Of a stretch of 64,000 nt of DNA, positions 42,615 through 44,144 are shown piece after piece. This stretch comes from Eledone cirrhosa (Eukaryota). How positions within the stretch are numbered: position 1 is the stretch's first letter; each line of letters opens with the position of its first letter. The stretch is from contig OZ024753.1 in NCBI GenBank assembly GCA_964016885.1, positions 28,334,001 to 28,398,000 on the forward strand, in the 5' to 3' direction. Both the position numbers and the translations under genes were made by a program. The notes below the pieces were generated by a model that saw only the letters and a program-made list of their open reading frames with translations, did no database searches and was not told where the DNA came from.

Positions 42615-42984
42615 ACATATATATATATATATATATATATATATATATATATGTATATATATATATATATATGTATATATATATATATATATATATATAT
42701 ATATATATATATATATATATATATATACATATATATATATATATATATATATATGTATATATATATATATATATGTATATATATATATATATATATATAT
42801 ATATATATATATATATACATATATATATATATATATATATATATATATATATACATATATATATATATATACATATATATATATATATATATATATATGT
42901 ATATATATATATATATATGTATATATATATATATATATATATATGTATATATATATATATATGTATATATATATATATATATAT
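42615..42984. repeat. Long (TA)n microsatellite
   Basis: ~370 bp of TA with sparse TG/CA interruptions. Confidence 0.95.
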
Positions 42985-43290
42985 AAGTATGTACACGTAC
43001 ATACATATATGTATACCGACGTACAGTAGTATGTATATATATATATACATACATGCACACATATATATATGCACGTATGGATTCACTGTACGTCGGTATA
43101 CATATATGTATGTACGTGTACATACTTATATTTAAGTAACAGCCGTACTAAGAGTGGGAAATGAAATATCGTTTCATTTTTTCCGTTTATCGTTTTCGGT
43201 GCACCCGGCCGATTAACCCACTCGATATGCATATTGGGCTACTCAGCCGTTAATATGCATAAGGTAAGTATATACGTTCAACAATCTGGC

Positions 43291-43348
43291 AGGAAGGTAT
43301 ACGTTGCTGACGATAGCTAACAAGCTTGAAACTAGTACAGCGTTCCTT
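43291..43348 (+). ncRNA. Type I hammerhead ribozyme (unit 1)
   Basis: CTGACGA at 43307-43313, GAAAC at 43328-43332, palindromic ACTAGT stem III, predicted GUA cleavage after 43337, stem I ACGTTG/CAGCGT. Confidence 0.85.
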
Positions 43349-43712
43349 TGTCAGTGTTGAACAAACGAGCAACGGTGGTTGCTAGACACTACGGCTTAAT
43401 ACGGGATGTTTGTTTACAAACACACCGAGCATTATAATAAATGTTCGGTGAATCCATACGTGCATATATATATGTGTGCATGTATGTATATATATATATA
43501 CATACTACTGTACGTCGGTATACATATATGTATGTACGTGTACATACTTATATTTAAGTAACAGCCGTACTAAGAGTGGGAAATGAAATATCGTTTCATT
43601 TTTTCCGTTTATCGTTTTCGGTGCACCCGGCCGATTAACCCACTCGATATGCATATTGGGCTACTCAGCCGTTAATATGCATAAGGTAAGTATATACGTT
43701 CAACAATCTGGC

Positions 43713-43770
43713 AGGAAGGTATACGTTGCTGACGATAGCTAACAAGCTTGAAACTAGTACAGCGTTCCTT
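43713..43770 (+). ncRNA. Type I hammerhead ribozyme (unit 2)
   Basis: Identical motif 422 bp downstream; predicted cleavage after 43759. Confidence 0.85.
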
Positions 43771-44144
43771 TGTCAGTGTTGAACAAACGAGCAACGGTGG
43801 TTGCTAGACACTACGGCTTAATACGGGATGTTTGTTTACAAACACACCGAGCATTATAATAAATGTTCGGTGAATCCATACGTGCATATATATATGTGTG
43901 CATGTATGTATATATATATATACATACTACTGTACGTCGGTATACATATATGTATGTACGTGTACATACTTATATTTAAGTAACAGCCGTACTAAGAGTG
44001 GGAAATGAAATATCGTTTCATTTTTTCCGTTTATATATATATATATATATATATATTGGGAAAATTTGAACAGGAACAAAACAGAGAGGCAGTACAACGA
44101 ATGTTTATTAATTTCACGCTCTGGAGAGTGGGGTGGTGGTGGGG

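Follow-up and report, generated by a model that had tools for sequence, protein, structure and literature searches.

How does a non-coding unit of 422 bp come to stand as identical tandem copies inside a (TA)n microsatellite, and from what molecule were these copies made? This question is raised by a locus in a 64,000-nt stretch of the Eledone cirrhosa genome, which we call the window and to whose positions all coordinates refer unless another locus is named. The initial annotation had proposed a hammerhead-bearing retrozyme at this place, and the identity is supported by dispersed tandem arrays, by conservation of the ribozyme core and by covariation.

The locus and its family

The interval 42981..44033 had been described as one tandem repeat. 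This holds for most of it, as Tandem Repeats Finder and a base-by-base check give a period of 422 at 43085-44034, with 2.25 units that are 100% identical; the first 106 bases (42981-43086), however, are a reverse-complement arm. We number the unit from the first base 3' of the predicted ribozyme cut, so that position 1 is 43338. From left to right, there is a (TA)n target microsatellite (42617..42980), an inverted and 5'-truncated arm on the minus strand (42981..43086) that covers unit 111-216 and terminates at a short fixed 3' end (216), a head-to-head join of both arms with a 2-nt microhomology (43085..43086), a direct arm on the plus strand (43085..44034) that runs from unit 170 through its identical units to a long fixed 3' end (275), and the right (TA)n flank (44035..44056). 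The last 59 nt of the direct arm (unit 217-275; 43976..44034, plus strand) occur in one arm only and form a tail.

The arms consist of unit sequence alone between the (TA)n flanks, and no LTR, PBS or PPT architecture was found. The unit had been said to carry no ORF, and indeed no ATG ORF longer than 51 aa lies inside it; it also lacks an ORF with reverse transcriptase (RT) and GIY-YIG domains, so it is not an autonomous Penelope-like element (PLE). The longer ORFs listed for the region are microsatellite read-throughs. All four hairpins named earlier are present in the unit, and one pair of the GCAUAUU/AAUAUGC hairpin is mismatched in 23 of 31 relatives.

The window also contains a second, older two-armed copy of the family (~96%; 8228..8976, minus strand) with one hammerhead. 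Around the locus there are two copies of a SINE-like repeat (42440-42600 and 44640-44790), 82-94% identical in parts, and from 47592 to 64000 a 64-bp satellite with at least 256 copies and 96% matches runs past the window end. Fragments of LINE-type endonuclease/RT frames, which we take to be RTE-like, lie at 4914-7984, 11814-14078 and 38542-40162. Two hammerhead-like motifs were observed on the minus strand: one at 32750-32810, with a palindromic loop III and a cut near 32771, adjoins a TA tract, and the other, a CUGAAGA motif at 37960-38060 with a cut near 38005, is also found in L060, L083 and L096 and is probably the end of another PLE family.

Genome-wide counts were made in the 3.0-Gb assembly. 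A search with the core pattern of the family gave 26,560 matches and its reversed control 0, so that the copy-number check proposed beforehand revealed a dispersed multicopy family. The youngest subfamily has a 78-nt marker with 1,313 exact copies in the genome, and a subfamily of ~480-510 nt occurs at locus L092. When the unit itself was searched, 40 of 254 candidates were scored and gave at least 211 matches, of which the 150 listed are all 100% identical. The family was found as well in contigs of runs labelled as three organisms, with the 3' end kept and then AT repeats (X2, X5, X6); the four run contig sets are of uncertain kind, at least one of them with Hi-C-like chimeric ends, and show presence and variants, nothing more.

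A sister family with a 468-nt unit has 5,506 core-pattern matches (control, 16). It is homologous to the 422-nt family: 292 of 410 aligned bases are identical, and the alignment score is 182 compared with -63 +/- 14 for shuffled sequences. It retains the core together with the AACA and CUAG loops, whereas helix II is replaced throughout and helix I at three pairs. One example, L231:596-1063 (G000:C1 near 30.83 Mb), is young and has a canonical 5-bp helix II and the two-end geometry described below.

This genome appears to be rich in undescribed PLE and retrozyme ribozymes. Further hammerhead families with a palindromic loop III were seen at L086, L087, L088, L089, L061 and L092:6895, some of them with U before GAAA as in the 422-nt unit. 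A three-arm complex of more than 30 units was observed at L149-L150 (G000:C1:253.17-253.19 Mb), and its outer units have many one-base indels that resemble assembly errors.

In the literature covered by our search, outside which most subscription papers fell, we found no account of cephalopod retrozymes, of this family, or of tail and inversion anatomy in retrozymes. According to the accessible parts of two papers, the class is known (PMC7229834) and its PLE dependence is in print (bioRxiv 10.64898/2026.07.22.740005); the family itself appears to be new as a retrozyme, and it may already be catalogued as a repeat in Repbase or Dfam.

The hammerhead and its RNA context

The first copy of the type I hammerhead motif (43301..43343, plus strand) has CUGACGA at 43307-43313, GAAA at 43328-43331 and GUA at 43335-43337; the second copy stands 422 nt on (43723..43765, plus strand). 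Cleavage had been predicted after 43337 and 43759, the motif positions agree with this, and the predicted 422-nt monomer lies between both sites (43338..43759, plus strand). Helix I pairs 43301-43306 with 43338-43343 (6 bp) and is prolonged by a long stalk around the ribozyme (43276..43362, plus strand), helix II is AGCU/AGCU (4 bp) closed by a U.U mismatch, and helix III is a single A-U pair with a palindromic CUAG loop. Therefore, the earlier description of a complete type I hammerhead is right about the catalytic core, which is full, and overstated with regard to helix III. The proposed Rfam check was negative: the hammerhead models gave 0 matches in the window at the gathering score and none among the 108 matches at E<=10. 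Matches to Rfam miRNA families in the window were rejected, as they reflect an AT/GT microsatellite hairpin and the inverted arm.

Folding gave z = -3.4 for the 91-nt ribozyme domain and z = -7.4 for the 422-nt monomer, the latter in part from the microsatellite hairpin. In the predicted fold the extended helix I pairs both ends of the cut monomer, and the stalk would hold these two ends together. For the tandem dimer, the double hammerhead has -182.7 kcal/mol, compared with an MFE of -184.6 and with -170.4 for two single hammerheads; it is thus 1.9 kcal/mol above the MFE and 12 below the two single ones, with a pairing probability for its helix III of only ~1% in the ensemble model. The core is intact; the monomeric ribozyme is expected to be weak, and a functional form is predicted for the dimer. 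Axolotl hammerheads cleave much better as dimers according to the available part of PMC7229834, and the ribozyme described here, dimer-favoured by the folding model, resembles them in this respect. The CUAG loop is common to the 422-nt and 468-nt families, which makes cross-family ribozyme dimers conceivable.

The covariation set consisted of 31 representatives, obtained from 272 units of which 81 were distinct and formed 36 clusters; 5 error-rich or cut rows were excluded. A consensus structure of 79 pairs is 95.3% paired in these representatives and has 59 double changes, values that 0 of 500 shuffles reach for either measure, although the counts are inflated by relatedness and the alignment was selected on the hammerhead core. 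One helix I pair, for instance, is U.G in 17 representatives, G.U in 9, A-U in 2, C-G in 1 and unpaired in 2. A further covarying helix, 43152-43158/43217-43223 (43152..43223, plus strand), encloses the long 3'-end site at 43190; it has A-U in 17 and G-C in 13 of the 31, and it requires RNA downstream of site 275. Covariation together with this requirement points to internal priming.

An alignment selected on the core would be circular as evidence of core conservation, and therefore conservation was judged on flank-selected copies, by eye on the first 100 of 16,005. Among these 100 copies, changes in the core amount to ~1% and are sporadic, whereas N7, loop II, 10.1/11.1 and H17 have shared variants. 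The conservation or covariation that had been asked of genomic copies was accordingly found in the 31 representatives, in the 100 flank-selected copies and in the sister family, and at the level of sequence the hammerhead core is maintained across the subfamilies and the sister family.

Insertion anatomy and the candidate helper

Arm ends and target were examined in 43 loci. Two fixed 3' ends were found, a long one at unit 275 and a short one at unit 216, 59 nt apart; 87 ends could be called at one or other of these positions, and 79 of the 87 adjoin TA-rich sequence. Head-to-head two-armed insertions numbered 32, including one local-duplicate pair. One long and one short end were present in 31 of the 32 (binomial p ~8e-9), in either order (16 and 15), and the remaining insertion has two long ends. 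The arms are joined with 0-4 nt of microhomology or filler and reach at least 20 units per arm. Regarding the 5' ends, they are evenly spread (52 ends from 26 junctions, KS p = 0.36), the other 6 of 32 junctions being excluded from this test as poorly resolved. In the sister family the ends fall at the homologous positions 304 and ~230, with a tail of 74 nt; since the tail lengthens with the hairpin that it encloses, structure seems to set the end sites.

It had been considered beforehand that the unit might be an internal piece of a DNA transposon or Helitron. This is very improbable: the asymmetric ends, the variable arms and the direct (TA)n flanks speak against a MITE/foldback element as well as a Helitron fragment.

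An inverted truncated copy with a tail at one end is the known geometry of PLEs, as far as the accessible text of bioRxiv 2021.04.23.441226 and PMC3846280 goes. The available part of PMC11167929 reports that a PLE protein, once purified, makes cuts in each strand of AT-rich DNA, that PLE RT starts internally at two sites which define the tail, and that the enzyme is a predicted dimer. By their sequence anatomy, the fixed asymmetric ends, the inverted arm and the (TA)n target of the 422-nt family point to a Penelope-like helper.

Candidate helpers are abundant. There are 10,596 GIY-YIG candidates in the genome; in those sampled, an RT domain precedes GIY-YIG and a CxxC linker is present. The locus L083:1988-5065 holds an unbroken PLE frame of 1,025 aa (RT and GIY-YIG), with direct and inverted pLTR, a 38-nt tail and two-end geometry in (TA)n; PLEs of this genome, this one included, have the insertion geometry of the 422-nt family. 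Named relatives of the L083 protein in oysters are 61-65% identical, which is high for such a distance. Bivalves supply most of the closest named relatives of a PLE protein encoded in this genome. No pLTR or sequence homologue of the unit was found in 50 PLE loci out of the 10,596 candidates, where blastn found inserted retrozyme copies alone. The tails of three PLE families (~38-50 nt, both ends seen) have no likeness to the 59-nt tail beyond AT-rich ends, and a search for hammerheads with the CUAG loop yielded the sister retrozyme and no PLE in the first 100 of 5,506 matches.

The template, the proposed mechanism and known systems

In our reading, to which we assign a probability of roughly two in three, the locus is a young non-coding retrozyme insertion, and its family moves by way of a circular RNA of 422 nt that a PLE enzyme copies into (TA)n. 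We infer transcription, cleavage and circularisation from sequence, and the evidence on the template comes from variants private to single insertions and from the behaviour of the arms at the cut site.

The variant A344T fills 8/8 units of one insertion, in both arms; its 8 occurrences in the assembly are all there, and it is linked with A97G in 7/7 complete units. Likewise, A205C fills 6/6 units of the insertion L034 in both arms. C396T has 59 genome matches, 42 in five arrays and 17 single. Four of these five arrays are uniform and further changes come as blocks, one insertion adding a private A61G in 3/3 units and another adding TA in 9/10. The locus L041 is mixed, with C396T in 13/16 direct-arm cores and 0 in the opposite arm, and L136 is also a mixed array; therefore, one molecule per insertion is not universal, and to explain the mixture one has to invoke template switching, recombination or a linear donor with a pattern of its own.

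Candidate 5' ends at the cut site numbered 29 (4 without the cleavage nucleotide, 1 internal deletion and 24 resembling 5' junctions), against 21 and 21 at control positions, which were counted without inspection and of which one set holds 7 probable duplicates. Arm starts within 5 nt of the cut site were 0/52, and junction insertions there amounted to one in 237 units. Run-off of a linear monomer at the cut site was not seen, as there is no excess of 5' ends. In L176, L177, L180 and L183 exactly the cleavage-site nucleotide is missing, perhaps as a scar of ligation, perhaps through an ordinary deletion. That the cut site is read through, together with the conserved ribozyme and the one-unit bottleneck, favours a circular monomer as template. 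Against this stand the two mixed arrays, the preference of a PLE for uncut RNA in vitro (PMC11167929), and the finding in bioRxiv 10.64898/2026.07.22.740005 that most retrozyme constructs failed to cleave. The rolling reverse transcription suggested in the initial annotation gains indirect support from the same read-through and from the whole-insertion private variants.

A different template would be the uncut linear multimeric transcript of a donor array, used by a PLE helper, with the ribozyme in another role or as inherited baggage. This too expects read-through of the cut site, and a donor with patterned units would account for the mixed arrays L041 and L136; furthermore, in the part of PMC11167929 available, uncut RNA is the dominant PLE template in vitro and ribozyme mutants were still inserted. 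Nevertheless, we consider it unlikely, because whole-insertion private variants such as A344T have no donor array in the assembly, because new variants appear as whole-array blocks inside one lineage, and because the core is kept across the subfamilies and the sister family. It is conceivable that a private variant has its donor on a haplotype missing from the assembly.

Quite unlikely, in our view, is a cut linear monomer with its ends held by helix I, on which RT would jump repeatedly from the 5' end to the 3' end as on a non-covalent pseudo-circle. It predicts an equal one-molecule bottleneck and ribozyme selection, the monomer fold does pair its two ends, template switching would account for L041, and four copies lack the cleavage-site nucleotide. 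However, 5' ends are not in excess at the cut site and the 237 units have almost no junction scars, while end-to-end template jumping is usually error-prone. Very improbable, and already largely excluded, is an origin of the arrays in DNA, either by satellite-like expansion once a single copy had inserted or as a foldback/MITE-type transposon whose inverted ends lie in TA: the genome is rich in tandem repeats and both arms form inverted repeats, but the 3' ends are fixed and asymmetric with random 5' ends, private variants are common to both inverted arms, the RNA structure shows covariation and the core of the ribozyme is maintained.

For the RNA circle copied by a PLE enzyme, the following course may be proposed. 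Read-through transcripts of an array would be cut after 43337 and 43759 by a double hammerhead that forms via the palindromic helix III of adjacent units. By analogy with known retrozymes, a ligase, probably of the host, would then close the monomer, whose ends helix I holds together, into a circle. The insertion pattern suggests that the PLE endonuclease nicks both (TA)n strands and that RT starts at internal RNA positions, unit 275 for one strand and unit 216 for its partner; extension from each primer would go round the template a varying number of times and end at random. The arms would finally be joined head to head, and the product, an inverted insertion with 0-4 nt of microhomology or filler and a one-sided 59-nt tail, is the one seen in the sequence.

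More tentatively, and with somewhat less than even odds, we propose that both arms come from one ribozyme-closed circle; a dimeric PLE enzyme would prime at two sites, set by structure and separated by 59 nt, and each of its active sites would roll round the circle. If this is true, a single mechanism explains the PLE tail, its position on one side and the head-to-head arrangement of the arms, the role of the hammerhead is to make the circular template, and the family is a ready substrate for target-primed rolling-circle reverse transcription. The accessible parts of bioRxiv 2021.04.23.441226, PMC7229834 and bioRxiv 10.64898/2026.07.22.740005 leave open how animal retrozymes are mobilised and which part the hammerhead plays in the cycle of Penelope elements. 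A PLE route for retrozymes was proposed earlier, and the genomic evidence for the mechanism is here unusually direct, since young insertions still record the reaction: the target, the two priming sites, the one-long/one-short ends, the cut-site read-through and the single-molecule bottleneck. Unbroken PLE frames in the same genome make the rolling-circle model directly testable with predicted start sites; if the model holds, nature has here an enzyme system by which concatemers are written from circular RNA into DNA.

Compared with the metazoan non-LTR retrozymes of Cervera & de la Pena 2020 (PMC7229834), as described in its available part, the 422-nt family likewise has non-coding tandem units with a type I hammerhead each, low GC, high self-pairing, tens of thousands of copies and coexistence with PLEs. 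Its ribozyme combines the 1-bp helix III and palindromic tetraloop of the axolotl HHR_Amex1 with the U.U-closed helix II of HHR_Amex2. The unit is slightly longer here, 422-510 nt against ~170-400, and circles and cleavage are demonstrated in that paper and predicted for the 422-nt family. For the fixed ends, the tail, the inverted arms and the insertion into (TA)n we found no mention in the accessible text of PMC7229834, and its main text does not use the word 'inverted'.

The dependence of retrozymes on PLEs is a conclusion common to our analysis and to bioRxiv 10.64898/2026.07.22.740005. In its accessible text, the preprint draws on co-occurrence and pLTR phylogeny, leans to local tandem expansion after insertion, leaves the mechanism open and reports cleavage for 1/9 retrozyme constructs. 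In contrast, our evidence is insertion anatomy, which points to arrays made at insertion, and where the preprint has a pLTR phylogeny, the 50 PLE loci examined here gave no pLTR homologue.

With endonuclease PLEs (Neptune/Nematis-type linker), as far as the sources consulted describe them, the family shares the head-to-head inverted 5'-truncated copy, the tail at one end, the AT-rich/(TA)n target, two internal RT start sites (proposed for the family) and a hammerhead near the 3' end. It differs from them in having no ORF, in its longer tail (59 nt, or 74 nt in the sister family, where those PLEs have 30-40 nt), and in that the whole 422-nt element is the repeated monomer, with at least 20 units per arm. 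Judged on its sequence, the 422-nt family fits the definition of a non-LTR retrozyme and, by its insertions, that of a PLE-mobilised element.
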